64,000 bases of DNA from Candidatus Magasanikiibacteriota bacterium (GCA_014729395.1 WJJZ01000006.1:7090-71089); one strand, 5' to 3'; shown: positions 1 through 59,474, counted from the first letter of the stretch. Notes: generated by a model from the sequence alone, not told the origin. Numbers and translations: made by a program.

Positions 1-1521
1 GTAAAGAAATCTTATCTGACCATCACAAATACCGCATTAACTAACAAGACTGTAGTAGGCGGTAGTACTGACGTTCAAGTGTACGAGGGTAAGCTGAGTG
101 CGGGAACATCCTCTGACATCAAGATTACTGAAATAGTGTTCAACACCTATGATGCCAGTTCTGATAATGAAGACACACTATTTAGTGATACCAACATCTC
201 ACAGCTAAGACTCTACATTAATGGTGTAATGGTAAAAGCAAAGAGTGGCTCTATTACTGAAGCTGCAAACGACACAAGTGACGGCTCCATGACATTTAGC
301 GCTCTAAATACCACCATTCCATCCGGAGATACTTATACCGTAAAGATTGAAGCTGACTTTGCTTCAAATCTTAGTGGTACAGGTGAGTTTGCTTTGTCAA
401 TACCAACCGCAGCCAGTGTAACAGCACGAGATCAAGATAATGAACTTCTTACCTCTAGCAATAAAAATACCGTAACTGAAATTGAGTCTAGAGAGGTTAC
501 TCTTGCTGCCACCGGTGATTTGTTGGTTGATATGCAAACCGATGGTACCAACTGGAATAGAGATTTATATCTCTTGGCCGGTAATGGTTACGCCGAAGAT
601 AGATATGCCGGTGAGTTATACTTCCGGGCTAAAAACGAAGATGTGCTGGTAGAAGATTTATATCTTGAAGTTACATCTACAACCAATGCCACTGAAGATG
701 ATATTGAATCAATTTCTTTGGTAGATGGTGACGGTGTTGTGGTTATGACTGAAGCTTTTGTCTCACCAACGACGACATTTGATAATTTGGATTATGTTGT
801 TGAAGCTGAGAGCTCACAATCATTGTATATCTTGATTAATGCTAAAGGTAGTAATGTAGACGGTGACCCATCATCTACTGCCACTGCCGGTCGTAGTATT
901 TCTCTTATGATTTACAATGTTGTGGCTCGTGGACAAGATACCGGTGACAGTATTAGTATGTCTTCAGGTTCGGATTCTCCTGCATTTGGAAGTTACGATC
1001 ATGTACGTGATACTGTTAGTTCCACAATTATGACCAGTGTTCTATCGAGCGCTGTCAATGCCATGTCTGACGGAACTTTGACAGGTGGAAACGGCAAAAC
1101 CGTTGGTAAATATACCTTTACCTTCGATAATGCCGACAACCGCAATAGTGATAACACAGTTGCTACTACCACATTGACCACATTGGTACTAAACTTCGCT
1201 TCTTCTACAAATGTAAGAGCAGACAATGTTCAAGCATATATTGAAGGCGACAGTACCAATAAGACTACCGCTGTATCAGTTGATAGTAATGGTGAAGCTA
1301 CCATTAATCTAACTACCCTAAGCGGTGATTCAGAGCAAGTTACAGGTGTAGTAACACTTGTGATTACAGCCGACGTTACCACTTCAGCTTCTGATGGAGA
1401 ATACCTCCAAACAGAAATTGATGACTTATCTACTGACTTTACATGGGTTGGTGGTGTAAGTAACGGTGGTGACAGCAAGCTAAAGATTTCTGAAGTTATC
1501 GGCGGTACTCTAAGTGAGTAA
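1..1521 (+). CDS. C-terminal part (ORF open at window start) of a large Thr/Ser/Asp/Asn-rich secreted surface protein with about three tandem ~100-aa beta-sandwich (Ig-like) repeats
   Basis: Frame 1 has no stop from nt 1. The GTG at 79 is only the first start-like codon, not a real N-terminus. Low-complexity T/S/D-rich repeats have a recurring pattern (L.L...G...Y.V.I.AD). The stop at 1521 is followed by a hairpin terminator. Confidence 0.5.
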   Translation, partial: VKKSYLTITNTALTNKTVVGGSTDVQVYEGKLSAGTSSDIKITEIVFNTYDASSDNEDTLFSDTNISQLRLYINGVMVKAKSGSITEAANDTSDGSMTFSALNTTIPSGDTYTVKIEADFASNLSGTGEFALSIPTAASVTARDQDNELLTSSNKNTVTEIESREVTLAATGDLLVDMQTDGTNWNRDLYLLAGNGYAEDRYAGELYFRAKNEDVLVEDLYLEVTSTTNATEDDIESISLVDGDGVVVMTEAFVSPTTTFDNLDYVVEAESSQSLYILINAKGSNVDGDPSSTATAGRSISLMIYNVVARGQDTGDSISMSSGSDSPAFGSYDHVRDTVSSTIMTSVLSSAVNAMSDGTLTGGNGKTVGKYTFTFDNADNRNSDNTVATTTLTTLVLNFASSTNVRADNVQAYIEGDSTNKTTAVSVDSNGEATINLTTLSGDSEQVTGVVTLVITADVTTSASDGEYLQTEIDDLSTDFTWVGGVSNGGDSKLKISEVIGGTLSE

Positions 1522-1575
1522 TTAGTTTAAACTCTTGAAGAACGAAAGTTGTTTAAGAATAAACTAAAAACAAAC

Positions 1576-1606
1576 CTCGCCCCCTACAAGGGGCGGGGTT
1601 TTGTTT
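1576..1606 (+). terminator. Rho-independent terminator (CTCGCCCC-loop-GGGGCGGGG then TTTTGTTT)
   Basis: GC-rich 8-bp stem with a T-run, about 55 nt after the stop of the 1..1521 CDS. Confidence 0.65.
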
Positions 1607-1867: not shown

Positions 1868-4800
1868 CTATATCGGGTTACATGTTGTTGATATTTGAAA
1901 CGGGGATGAGCGATTGTAGAGACCGTCTATTATAAAATAGTAAATAGTCCCACCCGTAGTCTGAAACTCCCAGGAATCGCTATACCCCCCGCTCGCGCCG
2001 GCGGCGTATTTGTCGGCCGAACAATCGGCAGCCAAAACGATAATGTCCACGTCATCAGTCATGTTGTCAATTGTCAGATTGACATTCATATCAATATCAG
2101 TCGTGAATACATACACTCGTTCCGGGCCGTTGTAGTTGACCAGGTTTCCACCGTAGTTTAATCGGTTATTCTCATAACCGATAGTGGAGCCGTTTACAAC
2201 CACTCCACACTCAACAATACCACCACCATACTCCGAGCCTTCGTAGCTCGTGGAGCAGACAGTATCGGAACCACTACATTCCAGAGTACCTTCGCCACAG
2301 GCGGCCTCAGTCTCCAGACAAGGATCAGCCGCGATGTTGTCTATCTCATCATCGCAGTCATTATCCTCGCCATCGCAGATTTCGTCGCTCGGATCAGGAG
2401 CATCGCAATCTACCCAGTCGCCCGAGTCATTGCAGTACTCCAGTCCGGACCCGCACAGACTACTACATTCACGAGTCAGGTTTTCGTCACCATCGTCGCG
2501 ACCATCGCAGTCATCGTCCAGGCCGTTGCAGAGTTCTTCGGGTTCGGGACCGCAGTCGCCGCAAGCGTTGCGTACACCCTCATCAACATCGCCATCGCAG
2601 TCATCGTCCAAGTTGTTACACTCTTCGCTCGATGGACGACCGGGGGTACAGGTACCTTCCGGCTGGCCGTTGACACAGCTGACCACTGCCGTGGCCTCGC
2701 ATTCGCCTACACCACATTCAATGGTATAGTCATCGAGACCTTCGTCAATGTCACCATCACAGTCGTCGTCCAGGCCGTTGCACTCCTCGTCAGACGGCGT
2801 ACCCGCCTCACAAGTGTTAACTTCCTCGCCGGCGATGCATACGATGTTGCCGACAGACGCGCACTCACCCTGACCACAAGTAGTCTCGGGTTCAGCCAAG
2901 TCTTCGTCGGTTTCACCATCACAGTCGTCGTCAAGTCCGTTGCACTCTTCGTTAGTGGGGGTGCCGGGTTGACAGCTGTCTACCATCTCGCCGTTTTGGC
3001 AAGAGAGTAGACCGGTGGAAAAGCACTCGCCTTCACCGCAGCCGGTTTCAGAATCCGGTATGTCTTCATCAGTCTCACCATCGCAGTCGTCGTCCAGACT
3101 ATTGCAGGCTTCTGCTTGACTACCGGGTTCTACCAGAGCTACGCAAACGGGCAAGGCTTCTTCAGCACAGATTTTCTCGCCGTCACGGCAAATGCCGAAA
3201 TTGACTTCAACCGTACAGGTATCGCCCAGTCCGGGCAATTCGTCGGTTTCACCATCGCAGTCATTGTCTTCGCCGGGATTGAAACAAGTTTCTTCTTCCG
3301 GAAGAACCTGCTCCAAACATTGCAGATCCCAAGTATAGTCTTCAAGACACACTTGGTATCCTTCTTGGCAAATTCCAATGCCGCGTGTCTCGGCCGACCC
3401 TTCATAACAGGTCTGGGTTTCAGGATCCTGATCGTCATATCGGCAAGGACAGTCCTCATCAACATGACCATCGCAGTCATCGTCCAGACCGTTGCAGGTT
3501 TCTTCCTGTGGGTCAACCGTTCCGACACAGGTGAAAGTCCGTACTTCATTTTCAGTGGTACAGACTTCGCGACCAATGCGGCAAATGCCGGTACTGGTGG
3601 TTCCGCATTCAGAAGGCTCATCACCGGGTTCAACCGGTGGGTTGCCTTCATCCACCAGGCCATCGCAATCGTCGTCGCGGCCATTGCAGAGTTCTATTGC
3701 CCAGGGGTTGACCTCCGGGTTTGATTCGTCGCAGTCGGCTTCACCAAAGAAGCCATCCTGGTCAAAATCTTCTTCCGGACATGGTACATCCCCGGCCAGA
3801 CAATCTTGATCCAAGCCGTCACCACAACGTTCCGGAGCACCCGGGTACATGGTGGGATCGTCGTCATTGCAATCGGCTGAAAAATCGTACCCGTCCCGGT
3901 CACTGTCATTTTCAGGACAGGCCAGGTCTTCACCGTCGCAATCCTGGTCAATGCCATCACCACAAAGTTCCGGAGCATCGGGGAAAATTCCCGAATCAAA
4001 GTCGTTGCAGTCGGCCTGGGTGACCCAACCATCGCGATCAACGTCATCTGGCCATTCCGTAGTCGCAAAAATGCCGTCGCAGTCCTGGTCAATACCGTCA
4101 TCAGGAATGTCTTCGGCATCAGGATGAACGGAGTTGTCGTAGTCGTTGCAATCCCGTATGGAATCATGTTCGGCATCAGCATAGTAGCCGTCTCGATCTT
4201 CATCCCGCTCATACAACGGATTATCCGCTCTCCCGTCGCAGTCGTTGTCCATTTCGTCGATGACTTCCGGTGCTCCGGGGTATACCAGAGCGTTTTCATC
4301 ATTGCAGTCAAGGATGGCTATCCAGCCATCATTATCAGCGTCGGTCTGGTCGCAAATCAAGTCCTCACCATTGGAATCCTCATCAACTCCGTTGCTGCAG
4401 AAGCAGGGTCGGTTTTCAAAGGAAGTCGGTTGGTAAGGGTGAATATCTTGCGCCTTGGTACTGTCAAGTGCTTCAGAACAAATGATGGACACCCCGGGAT
4501 CGTCCAGATAAATCCGGTACTTCTCTTGAAGAGTGTCGTCATTGTCCTCTGCGTCATTGAAATTCGATCGGAGTGAGTCGTCCAGGTTTTCACAGCAACC
4601 GGGAACAGTCTCACCGGTATCATCAAGACAATGGTAGAAGCTGTCCCCATCCGAGTCGCATTCCGGTCGGTATTCTTCGAGCTGAATGGAAAATTCTTTG
4701 TTCTTTTTCACATTCAGCCTTCCGGAGTAGGTAGCAATTATATCGCCACCGGAGGACATACCTACAATATGCAAATAAATGACAGTACTTTGTGACGAGT

Positions 4801-5059
4801 TAATTCCGACATCAACGGGGTCAACCCTAATGTCGTTCTCAAATCCCGAAAATTCCTCCACTTCAGAGTGGATCTCTCGGTAATTGCCTTCTTCATCCTC
4901 TTTTTTGATAAGAAATCTGAGAAGGACGATTTCTTCAGTATCGATGCCAGCTTCCGCGCTAACATGAAGGATAAACGGATACTCCTCGTCTCCGCAGCCA
5001 ACGATACTTGCAAAAAAGGCCAATCCAAGAATACAAAGAGTGGTTTGTCTAATGCTCAT
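1868..5059 (-). CDS. 1063-aa secreted Cys/Asp-rich repeat lipoprotein. It has an N-terminal lipobox-type signal (..ASIVGC). Residues ~240-470 carry five MopE-like putative metal-binding motifs (DC(N/D)D...PGAPE...D.DCDG) with Asp-rich Ca-binding-like loops. Residues ~458-905 carry eight to nine ~55-aa Cys-rich repeats centred on ECNGLDDDCDGETDE. The C-terminal ~120 aa form a pre-peptidase-C-terminal (PPC)-like beta domain.
   Basis: Long ORF with a strong SD (AGGAGGTG) before the ATG at 5059. Motifs were read from the translation. GC and codon usage (GAC/TGC/GGC) are clearly higher than in neighbouring genes. Confidence 0.7.
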   Translation of the reverse strand: MSIRQTTLCILGLAFFASIVGCGDEEYPFILHVSAEAGIDTEEIVLLRFLIKKEDEEGNYREIHSEVEEFSGFENDIRVDPVDVGINSSQSTVIYLHIVGMSSGGDIIATYSGRLNVKKNKEFSIQLEEYRPECDSDGDSFYHCLDDTGETVPGCCENLDDSLRSNFNDAEDNDDTLQEKYRIYLDDPGVSIICSEALDSTKAQDIHPYQPTSFENRPCFCSNGVDEDSNGEDLICDQTDADNDGWIAILDCNDENALVYPGAPEVIDEMDNDCDGRADNPLYERDEDRDGYYADAEHDSIRDCNDYDNSVHPDAEDIPDDGIDQDCDGIFATTEWPDDVDRDGWVTQADCNDFDSGIFPDAPELCGDGIDQDCDGEDLACPENDSDRDGYDFSADCNDDDPTMYPGAPERCGDGLDQDCLAGDVPCPEEDFDQDGFFGEADCDESNPEVNPWAIELCNGRDDDCDGLVDEGNPPVEPGDEPSECGTTSTGICRIGREVCTTENEVRTFTCVGTVDPQEETCNGLDDDCDGHVDEDCPCRYDDQDPETQTCYEGSAETRGIGICQEGYQVCLEDYTWDLQCLEQVLPEEETCFNPGEDNDCDGETDELPGLGDTCTVEVNFGICRDGEKICAEEALPVCVALVEPGSQAEACNSLDDDCDGETDEDIPDSETGCGEGECFSTGLLSCQNGEMVDSCQPGTPTNEECNGLDDDCDGETDEDLAEPETTCGQGECASVGNIVCIAGEEVNTCEAGTPSDEECNGLDDDCDGDIDEGLDDYTIECGVGECEATAVVSCVNGQPEGTCTPGRPSSEECNNLDDDCDGDVDEGVRNACGDCGPEPEELCNGLDDDCDGRDDGDENLTRECSSLCGSGLEYCNDSGDWVDCDAPDPSDEICDGEDNDCDDEIDNIAADPCLETEAACGEGTLECSGSDTVCSTSYEGSEYGGGIVECGVVVNGSTIGYENNRLNYGGNLVNYNGPERVYVFTTDIDMNVNLTIDNMTDDVDIIVLAADCSADKYAAGASGGYSDSWEFQTTGGTIYYFIIDGLYNRSSPFQISTTCNPI
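2345..3690. repeat. Intragenic tandem DNA repeats of ~150-170 bp (eight to nine copies) encoding the Cys-rich ECNGLDDDCDG modules of the giant lipoprotein
   Basis: Recurring ...catcgcagtcgtcgtccaggccgttgca... blocks near 2511, 2600, 2756, 2912, 3080 and 3470. Confidence 0.6.
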
Positions 5060-17490: not shown

Positions 17491-18576
17491 ATGAATGTTT
17501 TTGAAGAAAATAGAAATATGAAATTATTAATCTTGACTCAAAAAGTAGATGCCAATGACCATGGTGTGCTTGGTTTTTTTCATGGTTGGTTAAAAGAGTT
17601 CGCCAAAGATTGTGAGAATGTAATCGTGGTTTGTTTGGAAAAAGGGGAATTTGACTTACCTGAGAATGTAAAGGTTTTAAGTCTGGGTAAAGAAACATGG
17701 GAATCAAAAATTAAATATCTATATAGGTTTTATAAATATATTATTAAATATAGAAAAGATTATGATGCGGTTTTTGTTCACATGAATCAGATATATGTTA
17801 TTTTAGGAGCGTTATTGTGGAAGGCTTGGAAAAAGAAAATTGGTTTGTGGTATGCACATGGTGCAACCCCATTTAGTTTGAAGGTGGCGGAAAAATTGAC
17901 TGATATGATTTTTACACCATCAAAAAAAAGTTTTAGAGTAAAATCAAAAAAATTAAATGTAGTCGGCCATGGTATTGATATGAATAAATATCAATTAAAA
18001 TCTCATAATAAGAAAAGCGAATTATGTGAAATATTAACTGTAGGAAGAATTTCTCCTATTAAAGATTATGAGACTTTAATTAGAGCAATGGAAAAACTCA
18101 GTAAAAAAGAAAGATACAAACATAAAATTATATTGAGAATCGTTGGTTCGCCAATAACAGAGGAACAAAAAAAATATTTTGATAAAATAAAGAAAAAAGT
18201 TAGAGAAAAAGGTTTATCTGACATAATTAAATTCACCGGTGGAGTTAGTTGTAAAGATATTCATAGTGTATATAAAGAATCAGATATTTTTATACATATG
18301 AGTCAGACGGGAAGCTTGGATAAAGCTATGCTTGAGGCAATGGCGACGGGTTTAACGGTTTTATCTTGTAATGATGCAGCCAGGGAGGTTTTTGGCGAAA
18401 ATAATTGCGATTTATTATATAATATGGCTGACTATGAAGACTTGGCGGAGAAGATGCAATATATTATAGACAACCAAGACAGAGATGGTGATTTGGGTGA
18501 AAGCCTTAGGCAGATTGTTGAAAAAAAACATAATTTAATCAACGTTATCAGAAGGATTTGTACAAAACTTAGTTAA
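17491..18576 (+). CDS. GT4-like glycosyltransferase
   Basis: C-terminal GSLDKAMLEAMATGLTV.S motif and an N-terminal Rossmann-like ILTQK segment. Confidence 0.55.
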   Translation: MNVFEENRNMKLLILTQKVDANDHGVLGFFHGWLKEFAKDCENVIVVCLEKGEFDLPENVKVLSLGKETWESKIKYLYRFYKYIIKYRKDYDAVFVHMNQIYVILGALLWKAWKKKIGLWYAHGATPFSLKVAEKLTDMIFTPSKKSFRVKSKKLNVVGHGIDMNKYQLKSHNKKSELCEILTVGRISPIKDYETLIRAMEKLSKKERYKHKIILRIVGSPITEEQKKYFDKIKKKVREKGLSDIIKFTGGVSCKDIHSVYKESDIFIHMSQTGSLDKAMLEAMATGLTVLSCNDAAREVFGENNCDLLYNMADYEDLAEKMQYIIDNQDRDGDLGESLRQIVEKKHNLINVIRRICTKLS

Positions 18577-21274: not shown

Positions 21275-22690
21275 ATGATAAGTTTATCTAAGTTTTCAAA
21301 ATTTATAAACAACAACAAGATACCAATTTTTCTATTTTTTTTGGCTCTTTTGAGCGGTTTTTTTTGGAACCACCGTTTTTATTTTCAAGCGATTCCAAGC
21401 GGCGGCGACCAAAGACAATATAGTTGCCTTGCAATCGATATGATCGAAAATGGAACGTATACGGAATGTGGTACTGAAAGTTTCTTAGAACCGGGATATC
21501 CATTATTTTTGGCCAGTATTTTTTTATTTTCAGATACTAGCCCCATTGCTGTGAGATTCGTTCAATTGTTTATTTTTGGTGTTATTGTAGTTTTAATATA
21601 TTTTTTGAGCAGAAGATTATTTGATAGTAAGGTAGCTTTCATAGCAGGGTTATTTACAGCCTTACATTGGAGTCTAGCTAACTATACCGGTTCTCTCATA
21701 CGAGAGGTTTTTTTAGTTTTTTCTATTCTGCTTTTAGTTTATTCATTATATATCGCAGTTTCGAGCAAAAAAAATACACATTTTATAATATCCGGGTTGC
21801 TTTTTGGGGTTGTGGCACTTTCGAATGCTATTATAGAATATTTTTTATTGTTTATAATTATTAATTTTATAATTATATTAAGAAAAAAAATAGAGATAAA
21901 GCAAATTTTTTTAAAGATAGGTTTATTTCTTTTTGCATTTTGTTTAATTTTGAGTCCGTGGATTGTAAGAAACTCTCTCTATTATAATAAACTGGTTGTT
22001 TCGCTTACACCAAAGAAGGGTCATATTTTGAGTATGAGGGCCGCCTTGATGGAGGAGATGTACCCGAATATTCATAAATATTATTTTGGTCATCTTTTTG
22101 GTTATTATTTTGCAGAAAAAGTATATCCGGATTTGGATATTTGGGCGTTTAGGGATTTTAATGCTGCGAATAGCGTCATGTTGGAATTGCGCGAAGAAGG
22201 GTATAATCTGAATCAAATAGATGAAATAATTTCAGAAAGAGCTGTTAATAAAATTATCACACAACCTCATAAATATGTAGCTTTTTGTATTTTAGATTTT
22301 TTAAATTTTAACAGTCCATTGATACCACAAAAAATATTCATGGGTAATTCTTATGTCCATTATACCTTTGCTGAAGGTAGATTCCCAACTGTACCCGGCT
22401 ATGTAAAATCAGGTGTGTTGATATTATTTCGAATCTACTGGTATACATTTTTGTTTTTAGTTATTTATGGTCTTTGTAAAAATATAAAAAATTGGGAAAA
22501 AATAAGTTGGTTTTTTTTGATTATTTTATATTTTAATGGTGTATATAGTGCGGTTCATGCACTCCCTCGCTATGCTGTCCAAATTTATCCTTTTTATATA
22601 ATATTAGCTTCAGCAGGAGTATTAATCTTATTTAAAAAATATAAGCATAAAATCAAAAGTTTAGTCGGTAAATTAAGTAAAACCAAATAA
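21275..22690 (+). CDS. GT-C fold polytopic membrane glycosyltransferase (ArnT/PMT-like, GT39/GT83-type)
   Basis: About 11 TM helices. The first periplasmic loop has a D/E-rich GGDQRQY..AIDMIENG motif reminiscent of ArnT/PMT_2 enzymes. Confidence 0.5.
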   Translation: MISLSKFSKFINNNKIPIFLFFLALLSGFFWNHRFYFQAIPSGGDQRQYSCLAIDMIENGTYTECGTESFLEPGYPLFLASIFLFSDTSPIAVRFVQLFIFGVIVVLIYFLSRRLFDSKVAFIAGLFTALHWSLANYTGSLIREVFLVFSILLLVYSLYIAVSSKKNTHFIISGLLFGVVALSNAIIEYFLLFIIINFIIILRKKIEIKQIFLKIGLFLFAFCLILSPWIVRNSLYYNKLVVSLTPKKGHILSMRAALMEEMYPNIHKYYFGHLFGYYFAEKVYPDLDIWAFRDFNAANSVMLELREEGYNLNQIDEIISERAVNKIITQPHKYVAFCILDFLNFNSPLIPQKIFMGNSYVHYTFAEGRFPTVPGYVKSGVLILFRIYWYTFLFLVIYGLCKNIKNWEKISWFFLIILYFNGVYSAVHALPRYAVQIYPFYIILASAGVLILFKKYKHKIKSLVGKLSKTK

Positions 22691-39970: not shown

Positions 39971-40060
39971 GTCATTCCCGCGAAAGCGGGAATCCAGGAA
40001 AGAAGTTCGTTGTGATAGGCTGGATTCCCGCTTTCGCGGGAATGACACGGTTGATTTTTT
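39971..40060. repeat. Compound palindrome made of two 26-nt arms, each itself a hairpin (cccgcGAAAgcggg / cccgcTTTCgcggg), separated by 24 nt and followed by a T-run. Probably a terminator or REP-like element.
   Basis: Perfect inverted repeat read directly. GC-rich against the AT-rich background. Confidence 0.6.
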
Positions 40061-54076: not shown

Positions 54077-55339
54077 ATGAGATTAATTGTCAGATATTTT
54101 TTAAAATTATTCACCGCCAGGATACTAAAAAAATACAATCCCGATGTTGTTGGAATTACCGGTTCGGTGGGAAAAACAAGTGTAAAAGATATCACCTTAA
54201 AGATATTAAGTAAAAAATTCAGAGTTTCCGGAAGTCCGGATAGTTATAATACTTTTTTTGGAGTACTTTTAACCGTGGTGGGTGAAAAAAGTCCGGGCAG
54301 ATCATTTATAACTTGGTTTTACATTTTAGGTAAAGCGCTTTTTTTATGTATAAAAAAGAAAAAAAGTTATGCGGAAATACTGGTGCTTGAAATGGCAGCT
54401 AATCGTCCCGGTGACATAAAAGAACTTACAGAATTGATCCAGTGCAATGTTGGTGTGGTAACCGCTATTTCACCGGTTCATATTAAATTTTTTAAAACAA
54501 TAAAAAAGTTATTTAGAGAAAAACAGCTGCTTGTTAGGAGTTTGGACCGTACCGGTTTTGCAATATTAAATAGAGATGACCTGGAGCTTTATTCAATGAG
54601 AAAAAAAACCGATGCTGATGTAATTACTTACGGTTTTCATCCGGACTCTACTGTGAGAGCTAGCGACATTAATATAAAAAAGGATCCGCAAACCGGCTGG
54701 CCGGAAGGTGTTTTTTTTAAAGTTATATACCAAGGAAGTGTTGTGCCCATATATTTGCCCGGTGTAGTGGGGGAGCATGTTATTTATTCAGCCCTTGCTG
54801 CAATTAGTATTGCTATAGTTTTTGGTTTAAATTTGGTTGAAATATCTCGTGCTTTACAAGAGCTAAAAATGCCACCCGGAAGAATGAGGGTGTTGCCGGG
54901 AATAAAAAATACATTAATAATAGATGATAGTTATAATGCTTCACCCATTTCCGTAAAGGCGGCTTTGAATACATTCTCCAAGTTAGATTTAAGTAATGCT
55001 AAGAGATACATTATTTTAGGTGATATGTTGGAGTTGGGTCAGCAAACGGAGAAATATCATCGAGAGATGGGAATTAGAGTGGCTGAATTGAATTTTGATT
55101 ATTTAATAACTGTTGGCTCGGCTACCAAGAATTTGGCTAAAGCGGCGATTAACAAAGGCGTGTCGGAAGATAAGGTTGCCAGCTTTTCGGATACAAAAAA
55201 AGCCGGTTTATTTTTACAAGAAAAATTAAAACCGGGGGATGCTTGTCTAATTAAAGGGTCGCGGGCCATGAAAATGGAAAAAGTGGTAAAAGAGGTCTTG
55301 GCCAAACCATTGAAAGAGAGTGAATTGTTGGTACATTGA
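54077..55339 (+). CDS. murF: Mur ligase, most like UDP-MurNAc-tripeptide:D-Ala-D-Ala ligase (MurF)
   Basis: VVGITGSVGKTS ATP-binding motif and IIDDSYNASP. MurE cannot be excluded. Confidence 0.55.
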   Translation: MRLIVRYFLKLFTARILKKYNPDVVGITGSVGKTSVKDITLKILSKKFRVSGSPDSYNTFFGVLLTVVGEKSPGRSFITWFYILGKALFLCIKKKKSYAEILVLEMAANRPGDIKELTELIQCNVGVVTAISPVHIKFFKTIKKLFREKQLLVRSLDRTGFAILNRDDLELYSMRKKTDADVITYGFHPDSTVRASDINIKKDPQTGWPEGVFFKVIYQGSVVPIYLPGVVGEHVIYSALAAISIAIVFGLNLVEISRALQELKMPPGRMRVLPGIKNTLIIDDSYNASPISVKAALNTFSKLDLSNAKRYIILGDMLELGQQTEKYHREMGIRVAELNFDYLITVGSATKNLAKAAINKGVSEDKVASFSDTKKAGLFLQEKLKPGDACLIKGSRAMKMEKVVKEVLAKPLKESELLVH

Positions 55340-55422: not shown

Positions 55423-55785
55423 ATGAAACAGAGATATATTGTCGTTTGTGAAGACGGACATGAAGCTCTGGTAGCGAAGCCCGCAGTTAGTAACATTTCA
55501 GTTTCAATGTCTTGCATAAGGTGTGGCAAGGATTTGGTTCGAATAACTGCCATAGGGAGTGTAGTAATTAAAGAACGCCAGATCTCACACGACGCATTGC
55601 GGAGTACAAATGAATACATTGCTGCATGCATAAACGGACATAAATTTGAGGTGACATCAGACTTTGGACCCGAGACGGTAATAAATAATATTTGTTGTCC
55701 GGATTGTAAAGCAGATATACTAACCTTGCATAAACAGGGTAGAGGTACGTTCTGTTTTGACTCTCGTCATTTTCGTATTAACTAA
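55423..55785 (+). CDS. Small hypothetical protein made of two tandem Zn-ribbon-like halves (YI..C.DGH...C.RCGKDL / YI..C.NGH...CPDCKADI)
   Basis: Strong SD (AAGGAGACAGGAGG) 5 nt before the ATG. Internal duplication read from the translation. GC is higher than in neighbouring genes. Confidence 0.5.
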   Translation: MKQRYIVVCEDGHEALVAKPAVSNISVSMSCIRCGKDLVRITAIGSVVIKERQISHDALRSTNEYIAACINGHKFEVTSDFGPETVINNICCPDCKADILTLHKQGRGTFCFDSRHFRIN

Positions 55786-55911: not shown

Positions 55912-55940
55912 TTGACAAAAAATTAATTCAACTGTATAAT
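55912..55940 (+). promoter_or_regulatory. Consensus sigma70 promoter TTGACA-17 nt-TATAAT driving the tRNA cluster
   Basis: Hexamers and spacer counted directly. The -10 box ends 18 nt before the tRNA-Glu 5' end. Confidence 0.7.
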
Positions 55941-55958: not shown

Positions 55959-56030
55959 GCCGCCATCGTCTAATGGCTAGGACGCCAGGTTCTCATCCTG
56001 GTAATAGGGGTTCGATCCCCCTTGGCGGTA
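55959..56030 (+). tRNA. tRNA-Glu (anticodon CTC)
   Basis: Cloverleaf folded by hand. Acceptor GCCGCCA/TGGCGGT, D-arm with G18G19, anticodon stem CCAGG/CCTGG with loop TTCTCAT, T-arm AGGGG-TTCGATC-CCCCT, discriminator A. 72 nt. CCA is not fully encoded. Confidence 0.85.
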
Positions 56031-56032
56031 CC

Positions 56033-56279
56033 GAGCTTTTCTATGTCGAGACGAAGCTGTGCTCGCTGGCCGGATTCCAAATAAAAAAGGTTTACCCGGC
56101 GCAGTCCTGTCCCGAACTCGAAGGGTGGGGGATCTGGATGGAAACGGGTCAGGGTAGCTCCCGCCTTCGTCCTTCGGACTACGGCGGGCAGGCAGTTGGA
56201 CCAACTTCTGTTCGAACTGCTATTATAAGTTTATCCTGGAAGCGAAGTTATTATTTACAATCAAAATATGTCAGGGTAG
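56033..56279 (+). ncRNA. Candidate structured RNA (unassigned family) in the ~250-nt spacer between tRNA-Glu and tRNA-Met
   Basis: GC-rich against the AT-rich genome. It has nested helices, for example ACCCG...CGGGT, CCCGCC...GGCGGG enclosing GUCC-UUCG-GGAC (UUCG tetraloop, 56169-56179), GTTGG-ACC-CCAAC and GCAGTT...AACTGC. The 14-mer ggtcagggtagctc repeats the 5' end of the tRNA-Met gene. Confidence 0.3.
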
Positions 56280-56356
56280 CTCAGTTGGTAAGAGCGTCGG
56301 ATTCATAACCCGGAGGTCGGGAGTTCAATTCTCCCCCCTGACACCAGGACACAAAA
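56280..56356 (+). tRNA. tRNA-Met (anticodon CAT). G1-C72 is paired, so it is an elongator type, or a tRNA-Ile2 (lysidine) candidate.
   Basis: Acceptor GTCAGGG/CCCTGAC is perfect. D-loop AGTTGGTAA, anticodon loop TTCATAA, T-arm GGGAG-TTCAATT-CTCCC and encoded CCA. There is one A31-C39 mismatch in the anticodon stem. Confidence 0.75.
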
Positions 56357-56362
56357 ACCCCC

Positions 56363-56390
56363 TGGCGGGGGTTTTTAATTTTTTTCTTTA
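56363..56390. terminator. Bidirectional rho-independent terminator (AAAAA-CCCCC-TGGC-GGGGG-TTTTT)
   Basis: Perfect 5-bp GC stem flanked by A5 and T5. It lies after the tRNA cluster (+) and after the hup stop (-). Confidence 0.8.
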
Positions 56391-56393
56391 TAA

Positions 56394-56753
56394 TTACATT
56401 CCCATGCCCATTCCACTTTCATTATCCTGAGTCTGACTTTCATCATTATCCTGAGAAGAATTATCTTCAGGCTTTTTTTCTTTTAAAGCATCTTTTAATC
56501 TTTTACCTGCTTTAAATTTTGGTACTGTTACCGGTGGAATTTGAATTTTTTCGCTTGGGTTTTGTGGATTAACACCAATGCGTCCGGCTCTTGTTTTTGC
56601 ACTGAATGCGCCAAAACCGGCGATATTTACTTCTCCACCAGACTTTAGTGTATTAATAACTATTTCAACATAGGCCTGTACCATATCTTCTGCTTCTTTT
56701 TTAGAAGTTCCGACTTTGTCGGCTATGGTTTGGGCAAGTTGTGCCTTGTTCAT
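56394..56753 (-). CDS. hup: HU-family nucleoid DNA-binding protein with an acidic C-terminal tail
   Basis: MNKAQL...GFG.F....RAGRNP.T.E.I.IPA...P.F..GK.LKDA is the HU signature. Confidence 0.85.
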   Translation of the reverse strand: MNKAQLAQTIADKVGTSKKEAEDMVQAYVEIVINTLKSGGEVNIAGFGAFSAKTRAGRIGVNPQNPSEKIQIPPVTVPKFKAGKRLKDALKEKKPEDNSSQDNDESQTQDNESGMGMGM

Positions 56754-56917: not shown

Positions 56918-58480
56918 TTATCTCGCATATTCAATTACTCTTGTCTCTCTTATGACGTTCACTCTTATTTCTCCGGGGTACTGTAATTCATTTTCTATTC
57001 TATGGGCAATATCTTTAGCCAAGTTATATGCTTCATAATCATCTATTTCATTTGGTTTAACAAATACTCTGACTTCGCGTCCGGCTTGAATTGCATAGAC
57101 CTTTTCAATACCGGGGAAATCACTGGCTGTTTGCTCTAGTTCTTCCAGTCTGGCAACAAATTGTTCATATGTATCTCTTCTGGCACCAACTCTTGATCCG
57201 GAAATAGCGTCAGCAGCTTTTACAATTTGAGTAATTAAAAGCTCCGGTTTGTCTTCATGATGATGCATGGCTGCGTCCTGAACTTCTTCACTGAGACCGA
57301 ATTTTTTTAATATGGTAAATCCAATTTCAGGATGACTTCCCTGAGTGTCTTGGTCAACCGCTTTTCCAATATCATGGAAAAAACCGGCTTTTTTTGCTTT
57401 AATTGCATCAACATCCAATTCTTCAGCCATTAGTCCGGCCAGATGAGCAACTTCCATAGAATGGTTCAATACATTTTGGCCATAACTGGTTCTGTATTTT
57501 AATCTACCAACTATTGAAACCAATTTGGGATCTATACCGGTAAAACCAAGTTTATACAAAGCTTCTTCCCCCGCTTTTTTAATATCGATTGCTAATTCTT
57601 TTTTAGCTTCTTCAATAAAATTTTCTATTCTGGCCGGCTGAATTCTTCCATCTTTGATAAGTTTTTCCAGTGCCAGCTGACAAACACGTCTTCTGATTGG
57701 AGAAAAACTTGATATGAGTAGAATTTCCGGAGTTTCATCAATGATAAGTTCACAACCGGTCATTTTTTCAATGGTCTTGATATTTCGTCCGTCTTTTCCT
57801 ATGATTCTACCTTTCATTTCTTCGCTGGGAAGATTAATAGCGGTTGAAGTTGTTTCACTGGAGTGATCAGCTGCGCATCTTTGAATTGTATCCAGGATAA
57901 TTTCTTTTGCTTTGGTTTCATAGGTTTCAGTATTTTCTTTTTCCAATTTCATAATACGGACTGATAAATCTCCCTTTACTTGTTGTTCTATTTTTTTGAA
58001 CAATTCTTCTTTGGCCTCATCTTTTGAAAAACCGGAAACAGTTTGAAGTTTTTCAATGGTTTTTTCATGTAAATCATCCACTTTCTTTTTTACCGACTGA
58101 ATTTCTTCCACTTTTTTTTGCAGCTTATTTTTTCTGTCTTCAAATTCCATTAATTTTTTATCAAACATAGACTCTCTCTTTTCGAGCCTGCTTTGCATAT
58201 GTTTGATTTCTTTACGTCTTTGTCCTTCTTCTTTTTTTGCGTCATCAATCACCTTAATTGCTTTTTCTTTGGCTTGAAGAAGAAGTTGCTTTTCTTTATT
58301 TTTTGCCTCGATTAGGACTTTTTCCGCTCTAGCTTCGGCTGAGTTTGAACGAGCTTGAGCGACTTGTTTTCGTAGGAGATAACCCAGACCGATTCCGATA
58401 GTTATACCACCTACAGCCATGATGGCTATAATAAATTCTGACATACAAAAAAATTTCTCATATTCATGAGTTTTCGGCAT
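56918..58480 (-). CDS. rny: Ribonuclease Y
   Basis: N-terminal TM helix, coiled-coil, KH domain (IGKDGRNIKTIE) and HD domain (HDIGKA...HH). 520 aa. Confidence 0.85.
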   Translation of the reverse strand: MPKTHEYEKFFCMSEFIIAIMAVGGITIGIGLGYLLRKQVAQARSNSAEARAEKVLIEAKNKEKQLLLQAKEKAIKVIDDAKKEEGQRRKEIKHMQSRLEKRESMFDKKLMEFEDRKNKLQKKVEEIQSVKKKVDDLHEKTIEKLQTVSGFSKDEAKEELFKKIEQQVKGDLSVRIMKLEKENTETYETKAKEIILDTIQRCAADHSSETTSTAINLPSEEMKGRIIGKDGRNIKTIEKMTGCELIIDETPEILLISSFSPIRRRVCQLALEKLIKDGRIQPARIENFIEEAKKELAIDIKKAGEEALYKLGFTGIDPKLVSIVGRLKYRTSYGQNVLNHSMEVAHLAGLMAEELDVDAIKAKKAGFFHDIGKAVDQDTQGSHPEIGFTILKKFGLSEEVQDAAMHHHEDKPELLITQIVKAADAISGSRVGARRDTYEQFVARLEELEQTASDFPGIEKVYAIQAGREVRVFVKPNEIDDYEAYNLAKDIAHRIENELQYPGEIRVNVIRETRVIEYAR

Positions 58481-58733: not shown

Positions 58734-59474
58734 TTATAAATTGTGGATAAGTCTTTCAATATTGTCAATTTTAACCAGTTTTGGTTTTATTGCATTCTCA
58801 ACTTTGAAATTTCCTATTTTTGTTCTTCGAAGTTTTTCGCAATATCCGGAAACTTCTAATTTTTTACCTATGTCATGAGCAAGTGTTCTAATATAAGTTC
58901 CTCTGGAGCAATCAACCTCCACTACTAAATTTGGCCATTTGTAATTTATTATTTTAAGATTATAAATATTAATTTTTACCGGTTTTCTGTCTATTGTTTT
59001 ACCCTGCCGAGCCAATTCGTATAATTTTTGACCTTTTATTTTTTTTGCGGAATACATTGGCGGAATTTGTTCTTGCGGACCTATGAAATTTTTTATAACT
59101 TCTTCAACATGTTTTGGCCCGGGTCTATGTTCTTTGGAAATATTATTAAAGATTATTTGGCCGGTACTATCTTGAGTATCGCTATAGGCTCCAAGTTTAA
59201 TATTTGCCAGATATGTTTTTTTCATATCTTTGAATTGATCAATTTTTTTTGTTGCATCTCTACCAAGGGCCACAATCAAAAGACCGGTTGCAAACGGGTC
59301 TAATGTTCCTGCGTGCCCGACTTTGGGTCTTTTCGGTTTTGGAGAGTCATTGTGCCGCAAATATCGTTTATAAATTTTTCTAATATAAGCAACTACATCA
59401 TGACTGGTCCAGTCTTTTGGTTTATCGATGAGTAAATAGCCGTTTTTCATAGTAATTGAGGAATTTTTTCGCAA
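58734..59474 (-). CDS. truB: tRNA pseudouridine(55) synthase
   Basis: GHAGTLDPFATGLL catalytic Asp motif. 246 aa. Confidence 0.8.
   Translation of the reverse strand: MRKNSSITMKNGYLLIDKPKDWTSHDVVAYIRKIYKRYLRHNDSPKPKRPKVGHAGTLDPFATGLLIVALGRDATKKIDQFKDMKKTYLANIKLGAYSDTQDSTGQIIFNNISKEHRPGPKHVEEVIKNFIGPQEQIPPMYSAKKIKGQKLYELARQGKTIDRKPVKINIYNLKIINYKWPNLVVEVDCSRGTYIRTLAHDIGKKLEVSGYCEKLRRTKIGNFKVENAIKPKLVKIDNIERLIHNL

Follow-up and report, generated by a model that had tools for sequence, protein, structure and literature searches.

Rickettsia palindromic elements (RPEs) are small and are found inserted in intergenic DNA and RNA genes, and also in protein-coding genes, where they keep the reading frame. 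In bacterial tRNA operons, RNase P and 3'-end processing free the internal and external transcribed spacers, some of which yield sponge RNAs, as does E. coli 3'ETS-leuZ. When integrases target a tRNA gene, it is reportedly the 3' part that they restore and not the 5' part. In the published description of GTAG-tagged REPs (repetitive extragenic palindromes) with complex loops (PMC3733652), a dinucleotide separates a GTAG from a stem; unpaired trinucleotides lie between this stem and a self-complementary inner part, and a 3-nt motif sits on the far side. Our literature search found no paper that describes palindromic repeats or REPs in CPR bacteria.

Here, we analysed a stretch of 64,000 nucleotides, called the window below, from a CPR bacterium, Candidatus Magasanikbacteria. 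It holds a tRNA operon in which tRNA-Glu(CTC) and tRNA-Met(CAT) are separated by an unusually long, GC-rich spacer (Table 1). Since the insert that makes up this spacer is absent from relatives, we judge that the spacer is not a conserved RNA gene. Probably, a composite insertion specific to this lineage has expanded the operon's internal transcribed spacer, put together from a partial duplicate of tRNA-Met, a mobile hairpin and further GC-rich DNA.

Table 1. Features of the tRNA operon, its spacer and the hairpin family. Positions refer to the window unless a related locus (L) is named; z and n/200 give the fold score and the number of shuffles at least as stable.
Feature	Position	Strand	Remark
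Mur ligase	54077-55339		neighbour upstream of the operon
120-aa ORF	55423-55785	+	weak zinc-ribbon (Brz-type) match; between Mur ligase and tRNA operon
Operon promoter, TTGACA-17-TATAAT	55912-55940	+	12/12 consensus match
tRNA-Glu(CTC)	55959-56032	+	ARAGORN; Rfam tRNA model 60.8 bits
Spacer tRNA-Glu/tRNA-Met	56033-56269	+	237 nt
5' part of spacer insert	56033-56147	+	115 nt, 55% GC; two predicted hairpins (56034-56058, 56095-56148)
5' hairpins as folded	56033-56060; 56094-56148	+	z -1.05 (29/200); z -1.35 (20/200); like shuffles
Exact copy of tRNA-Met nt 1-13, GTCAGGGTAGCTC	56148-56160	+	equals 56270-56282; direct repeat
GTAG 'tag'	56154-56157	+	inside the 13-nt tRNA-Met copy
98-nt Y-shaped domain	56148-56245	+	MFE -38.0; z -3.08 (0/200)
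REP-like hairpin with 13-nt copy	56148-56200	+	z -0.58 (50/200)
Outer stem CCCGCC/GGCGGG	56160-56165 / 56183-56188	+	6 bp
Inserted two-tier hairpin, REP/RPE-like	56161-56193	+	33 nt; from fold; boundary ambiguous by one C
Second hairpin	56191-56221	+	folded as 56190-56225; z -3.16 (3/200)
AGTTGG, tRNA-Met nt 14-19	56194-56199	+	continues the interrupted fragment
Weak extended -10-like site, TGGACC-18-TATTAT	56197-56226	+	9/12 with TG upstream; consensus match only
AT-rich spacer tail	56216-56269	+	last 54 nt, 26% GC; overlaps the -10-like site
tRNA-Met(CAT), CCA encoded	56270-56346	+	ARAGORN; Rfam 68.5 bits
Intrinsic terminator of operon	56353-56376	+	10-bp stem, then T run
HU	56394-56753	-	neighbour
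RNase Y	56918-58480	-	neighbour
TruB	58734-59474	-	neighbour
Hairpin family copy, window	56160
Hairpin family copy, L044	1528
Hairpin family copy, L031	313
Hairpin family copy, L019	19014	-
Hairpin family copy, L020	14955	-
Hairpin family copy, L027	4014	+
Hairpin family copy, L027	4109	-
Hairpin family copy, L030	11547	-
L044 segment as folded	1516-1580		z -2.01 (6/200)

The tRNA operon and its spacer among relatives

One promoter and one terminator frame tRNA-Glu(CTC), the spacer and tRNA-Met(CAT). The consensus promoter named in the original prediction was found at 55912, and its TTGAC and -10 box are conserved in four related loci (L038, L033, L032 and L045). Because the unit of promoter, tRNA-Glu and tRNA-Met is conserved among relatives, it is reasonable to expect that transcription from this promoter would read through the spacer. 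The feature had been placed at 56033-56279; its start was right, but its end lies 10 nt inside tRNA-Met, the spacer ending at 56269. The genes around the operon are housekeeping genes, and a Pfam scan of ten window proteins near the locus revealed no transposase. At the ends of the tRNA genes, the window tRNA-Met encodes its CCA (56344-56346), the same body being followed by CGA in L038, while CCG (56031-56033) comes after the window tRNA-Glu. The 120-aa zinc-ribbon ORF may also be lineage-specific, since the Mur ligase of L045 directly abuts the tRNA promoter.

Relatives were collected through RNase Y from contigs representing one genome per species, and nearly all of them are Candidatus Magasanikbacteria or Patescibacteria MAGs, the best being L038 with 87% identity. 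Four of these relatives keep the promoter-tRNA-Glu(CTC)-tRNA-Met unit and none of the four has the long spacer: the two tRNAs are 10 nt apart in L038, whose 75-nt tRNA-Met body is identical to that of the window, 12 nt in L045, which has the same Mur-ligase/HU synteny, 27 nt in L033 and 3 nt in L032. The window spacer is thus 9-80 times as long as its counterparts. The two tRNAs lie in separate units in L037, where the gene between them resembles by eye a CorA-type transporter, and the sequence of P0003/L043 ends before the tRNA locus. Neither blastn nor nhmmer found a homologue of the spacer among 42 related loci (about 700 kb). Judged by this comparison, this lineage has gained roughly 210-235 nt by insertion. 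The original prediction had offered an uncharacterised small RNA and had named a lack of conservation in related genomes among the grounds for giving it up; no conservation is seen, the corresponding spacers being 3-27 nt long.

The spacer also stands out in composition. The GC content of 100-nt windows is 0.53-0.65 in the spacer against 0.24-0.45 around it, and the 150-nt window at 56045-56194, with 0.607, is exceeded by only one other across the 64 kb (mean 0.347, s.d. 0.076). The GC richness seen earlier holds for the first 183 nt of the spacer (56033-56215, 57% GC against 35% in the genome), but not for its AT-rich tail. For the 5' part of the insert, no similarity was found in Rfam (E<=10), the phage and plasmid collections, the related loci or the predicted proteins. 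The only other large GC-rich zone of the window, 1868-5059 (-) with 50-61% GC, is the gene of a protein of 1063 aa that is rich in Cys and Asp, contains many repeats of the CNGLDDDCDGxxDE type and has an N-terminus that resembles a signal peptide by eye; the GC content of the zone follows from the amino-acid bias of this protein. The only other GC-rich palindromic repeat noticed in the window is GGATTCCCGCTTTCGCGGGAATGACA at 39990-40050, read on both strands, which looks like the GTCATTCCCGC..GCGGGAATCC repeat type of L027 and L011.

Does the spacer belong to a known class of element? No Rfam family matches 56033-56269, whether at gathering score or, under permissive filters, at E<=10, in agreement with the earlier failure to match RNase P, SRP or tmRNA by eye; ARAGORN found no tmRNA either. 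SRP, RNase P, 6S and tmRNA were rejected on two counts, as no model matches and the insert is missing in relatives that would need these RNAs too. Riboswitches, ribozymes and group I/II introns likewise lack a match in the spacer at both Rfam thresholds. Searches with blastn against phage and plasmid collections returned only tRNA matches or noise, and pattern scans of IMG/VR for the hairpin or its junction found none. A 111-aa ORF at 55973-56308 spans both tRNAs; a protein-coding reading was rejected because no word of the translated spacer recurs among 5.8 billion predicted proteins, leaving the spacer part of this ORF without a relative. A MITE was dismissed, as no terminal inverted repeats or target duplication are seen by eye at the ends of the insert. 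TIGR-Tas arrays are common in CPR bacteria. In such (Tas-associated) guide RNA arrays, which adjoin a tas gene, the units repeated in tandem contain a box C (RUGAUGA) and a box D (CUGA) motif (PMC12045711). The spacer contains neither TGATGA nor CTGA and no tandem array, and there is no Nop-domain gene among its neighbours.

A tRNA-Met fragment and a dispersed two-tier hairpin

The longest substring shared by the spacer and tRNA-Met has 13 nt, against a maximum of 11 across 2000 shuffles, and is therefore beyond chance. The copy of the tRNA-Met 5' end that had been reported as 14 nt long is real, but its exact length is 13, as the preceding bases differ. Excision of 33 nt (56161-56193, CCGCC...CAGGC) joins this copy to AGTTGG and restores the tRNA-Met 5' end at 19 of 19 positions. 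Hence, the hairpin sits within a tRNA-Met 5' fragment, between nt 13 and 14 and directly 3' of GTAGCTC. Past nt 19, nothing in the spacer is convincingly tRNA-like. The Infernal tRNA model has no match in the spacer at E<=10, and ARAGORN found no tRNA there with its default thresholds or with these lowered to 80%, whether the 33-nt hairpin was kept or cut out, nor with introns allowed. Of the degenerate tRNA suggested by the original prediction, the 19 nt from tRNA-Met thus stand, but neither program recognises a tRNA. A likeness of the hairpin to the tRNA-Glu 5' end (10/11) is not significant (p 0.14).

The hairpin is built in layers: the outer stem, a 3x3 internal loop UUC/UAC, the inner GUCC-UUC-GGAC and a 3' tail CAGGC. 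The fold confirms the CCCGCC/GGCGGG stem with a nested hairpin; an extra-stable UUCG tetraloop does not hold up, as the inner loop is the triloop GUCC-UUC-GGAC and not C(UUCG)G. We scanned metagenomes with the 22-mer GTCAGGGTAGCTCCCGCCTTCG and retrieved one contig, L044 (Ga0114925_10123723, 1660 nt, about 48% GC). Its match runs past the query, GTCAGGGTAGCTCCCGCCTTCG[TTAAAA]CTACGGCGGGCAGGC, with 16 more identical bases after the hairpin tip, and the same 13 nt precede the hairpin. The tips differ yet both pair, GU-UAAA-AC in L044 versus GUCC-UUC-GGAC in the window. Outside the tip, the window and L044 1516-1562 are identical at 38 of 38 positions. This match, confined to 46 nt, is to be read as real homology. 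The L044 organism is unrelated to that of the window, and the match lies upstream of a gene whose product resembles by eye a beta-helix/dockerin-type secreted protein.

Is the hairpin confined to this operon? A scan of the window, the 42 related loci and L044 with the pattern stem6-UUC-inner-UAC-stem6' found eight two-tier hairpins, one in the 64 kb of the window and seven in about 660 kb of related loci and L044, the density in the related loci being about one per 100 kb. The outer stems differ (CCCTCC/GGAGGG, CCCGAC/GTCGGG, CCGTCC/GGACGG, CCCGGC/GCCGGG, CAGGGC/GCCCTG), although their complementarity is no evidence in itself, as it was a search criterion. Inner pairing and 3' tails lay outside the search criteria: the inner part is self-complementary in all eight hairpins, and seven carry the 3' tail CAGGC or TAAAC. 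A reversed-sequence control gave six pattern matches, none of which showed, on reading, a paired inner part or CAGGC/TAAAC tails. The GTAG tag is found in two of the eight, those of the window and L044. Because MAFFT put the 5' stems out of register when aligning the eight hairpins, no covariance model was built and the family rests on the pattern scan and the reversed-sequence control. Rfam searches at gathering score and at E<=10, which took in L044 and six related loci, gave no match to the hairpins. A further match in L020, GGCGGGCAGGCAsTTGGACCA (21/22, E 0.01), is possibly related to the insert; its pairing context differs.

The sites occupied by the hairpins speak for mobility. The L031 copy forms a 23-aa in-frame insertion (..SFALATEGRPTPRAACIAFGDAWPKR..) in TruB in comparison with the window and L043 orthologues; it lies at about 300-385 (+) of that locus, inside the gene (34-747), and consists of CCCTCC..GGAGGG CAGGC and a second GC hairpin. 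As this insertion demonstrates, family members sit at non-orthologous sites, even inside a gene, and judged by their distribution the family is mobile. In L027, the intergenic region after RNase Y (3930-4115) is packed with GC-rich palindromes, and an inverted pair of two-tier hairpins lies there within GTTTACAGGGC/GCCCTGTAAAC arms, reminiscent of a REP dimer.

Structured sequences were also noticed at other tRNA-Met loci. In L011 17933-18119 (+) (SCQK01000007.1, Patescibacteria MAG DP16D_bin.9), a 112-nt cassette interrupts the anticodon of the tRNA-Met orthologue, separating nt 35 from nt 36. The cassette is an 18-bp helix (AUUCACCCUCCCACCAAA / UUUGGUGGGAGGGUGAAU) with a whole second tRNA(CAT), 17984-18058, at its tip. 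When folded, the 187 nt form one cloverleaf nested in another (MFE -90.5, z -5.9), and deletion of the cassette restores a canonical 75-nt tRNA-Met. The arrangement is reminiscent of tRNAs that are split or bear an intron, or else of a mini-element that carries a tRNA; we know of no bacterial precedent for such a tRNA inside a tRNA. A GC-rich element of ~85 nt lies directly 3' of tRNA-Met in L016 (19842-19930, +) and L023 (12057-12137, -), two different genomes related to Magasanikbacteria, with 78% identity and closed by CACCCCG/CGGGGUG. Rfam has no match for it at gathering score, and the element may be either a small RNA or a further mobile insert. In L019, a related hairpin (CCCGCC TTCG ... 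GGCGTGG) at 21419-21446 (+) lies 3 nt upstream of tRNA-Met and, by eye, downstream of a promoter-like sequence. Taken together, these loci suggest that tRNA-Met loci are insertion hotspots in this clade.

Origin and possible roles of the spacer

How could such a spacer arise? We infer the following order of events. The 3' half of the spacer would derive from a partial duplicate of the adjacent tRNA-Met, of which 19 nt of the 5' end survive, and a 33-nt GC-rich hairpin would then have interrupted this fragment between nt 13 and 14. The hairpin belongs to a small dispersed palindromic family of Magasanikbacteria-related genomes and at least one unrelated organism, and the 5' half (115 nt) would be further inserted GC-rich DNA. 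The spacer would be transcribed by read-through from the promoter at 55912 and freed by an RNase P cut at the tRNA-Met 5' end (56270) together with tRNA-Glu 3' maturation. The freed RNA would be a discarded by-product, and its GC hairpins may only slow its decay.

Folding bears on this scheme in two ways. We compared minimum free energies with 200 shuffles, which for the whole spacer preserved dinucleotides. The whole spacer reaches -77.1 against -71.3 +/- 4.8 kcal/mol for the shuffles (z -1.22, 26/200 as good), and a fold no better than that of shuffles counts for inserted debris. The high degree of structure originally ascribed to the entire spacer is therefore not borne out, but it does apply to one sub-domain, the 98-nt Y-shaped domain. 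It consists of a closing helix, UCAGGGUAG.. / ..UUUAUCCUGG, which includes G-U pairs and uses the GUCAGGGUAG copy, of the REP-like hairpin and of the second hairpin. The stability of this domain (z -3.08) and its G-U closing helix fit selection at the RNA level and speak against mere debris. Likewise, the retention of 57% GC in a 35% GC genome and the perfect 19/19 fragment could reflect constraint rather than recency, and function, instead of transfer, could account for the 38/38 identity that links the window to L044 across phyla. REPs are usually abundant, and the single hairpin copy in the 64-kb window also counts against the composite insertion.

It is nevertheless unlikely, in our view, that tRNA-Met gave rise in this lineage to a young functional RNA that consists of the 98-nt domain or of the whole spacer. 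Such an RNA might be a decoy or processing module resembling a tRNA, or a stable sRNA that RNase P and 3' maturation release from the spacer. Such a role would suit a domain more stable than all 200 shuffles, a second hairpin with a z of -3.16, a spacer as GC-rich as the flanking tRNAs and a position inside a strongly promoted and terminated unit. It would also suit the pairing of GUCAGGG with a downstream acceptor-like strand, which occurs in the window and again in L044 (CUUGAC; z -2.01), where the sequence ends in CTTGACAC, by eye matching the L032 tRNA-Met 3' end. However, the insert is absent from every sampled relative, including L038 with its identical tRNA-Met, it has no Rfam match, and Infernal and ARAGORN see no tRNA in it, the latter even with the hairpin excised. 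Moreover, L044 shares only the hairpin and 13 nt, and two sequences provide no real covariation test.

A bolder combination of mobility and function is to our mind doubtful. Here, the acceptor/D-arm 5' strand of tRNA-Met, the GTAG-tagged two-tier hairpin and the acceptor-like 3' strand would together form a tRNA-derived mobile or functional RNA module that spreads between phyla, from which the CPR bacterium and the L044 organism come, by inserting 3' of GTAGCTC in tRNA D-arms, where this motif is near-universal. The module would be part of a wider, undescribed tendency of Magasanikbacteria-related CPR to have their tRNA-Met remodelled by small structured cassettes, as in L011.

The two 13-nt repeats (56148-56160 and 56270-56282) could in principle be att cores (attL and attR) left by an integrative element. 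This element would have integrated into the 5' part of tRNA-Met, providing the gene with a new 5' end and promoter, and would since have been deleted down to 109 nt (56161-56269), L044 displaying the same left junction in another host; we regard this as improbable. The direct repeat does begin exactly at tRNA position +1 and flanks a segment whose extended -10-like site could drive the restored tRNA, and the identical 13 nt and hairpin junction recur in the unrelated L044 with no tRNA body after them. Yet no integrase or other element gene lies in or near the locus, and an unusual integrase that restores the 5' part of a tRNA would be needed. The AGTTGG that continues the tRNA after the hairpin would have to be a coincidence (about 1 in 4096 per position), and 56033-56147 would be left unaccounted for.

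Finally, an assembly chimera, in which foreign reads were joined through conserved tRNA sequences, would agree with a left boundary exactly at the end of a conserved tRNA gene, a composition foreign to the genome and a source that is a singleton MAG, exact look-ups of the window HU protein having given no second copy of the genome in the collections, but is highly improbable because no long k-mer is shared at the return junction, where only 13 nt are followed by hairpin and not by tRNA, while the AT-rich tail grades into host-like sequence and the related hairpins are genuine residents of related genomes.

The composite insertion thus remains the reading that we favour. A GC-rich, foldable stretch in the tRNA operon of an AT-rich genome mimics an RNA gene, and here close relatives expose it as inserted DNA. 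If the side observations on the hairpins and on other tRNA-Met loci hold true, CPR bacteria would carry REP/RPE-like two-tier hairpins that land in spacers, tRNA fragments and reading frames, and their tRNA-Met loci would be hotspots for small structured insertions. This would have a bearing on how very small genomes tolerate and use selfish elements.

Comparison with known systems

Like tRNA pseudogenes or the partial tRNA duplications found at integration sites, the spacer contains an exact partial copy of the adjacent tRNA in direct orientation. Unlike in those, it is the 5' end (nt 1-19) and not the 3' end that is copied, and the copy comprises 19 nt, is interrupted by a hairpin and has no integrase. 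The segment is also comparable to tRNA-operon spacers, in that it is predicted to be co-transcribed and could persist as a by-product RNA, but in contrast to spacer sponge RNAs it has neither conservation nor a known partner RNA.

In structure, the hairpin resembles the GTAG-tagged REPs (Di Nocera et al. 2013, PMC3733652). The window hairpin is likewise a GC-rich imperfect palindrome of 30-40 nt, within the 20-40 bp of such repeats, with an unpaired GTAG at one end. The dinucleotide CT leads from this GTAG to the 6-bp stem, within which lie the 3x3 loop and the inner stem of 4 bp, and the CAG tail is on the other side. As in the REPs, the stems of the family vary yet stay complementary, and most copies are intergenic with occasional intragenic ones. 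Such REPs occur in many copies per genome, often as inverted dimers, and go with a RAYT (Y1 transposase); one inverted pair is seen among the related hairpins, in L027. The differences are the low copy number of one per 64-kb window, the restriction of GTAG to the window and L044 copies, a host that is a CPR bacterium, and the fact that the window GTAG is the U8-A9-G10 region of a tRNA fragment. Owing to the low copy number and the presence of GTAG in two of eight copies, we do not file the hairpin as a strict REP.

RPEs are larger (100-150 bp) and AT-richer, are not known outside Rickettsia, and have no sequence relationship to the hairpins described here. The 23-aa insertion in the TruB of L031 is nevertheless comparable to the in-frame insertion of an RPE. 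The RPE-like pattern of presence and absence at orthologous sites is likewise seen, the spacer insert being missing in four operons of relatives and the TruB insertion being missing in the window and L043.
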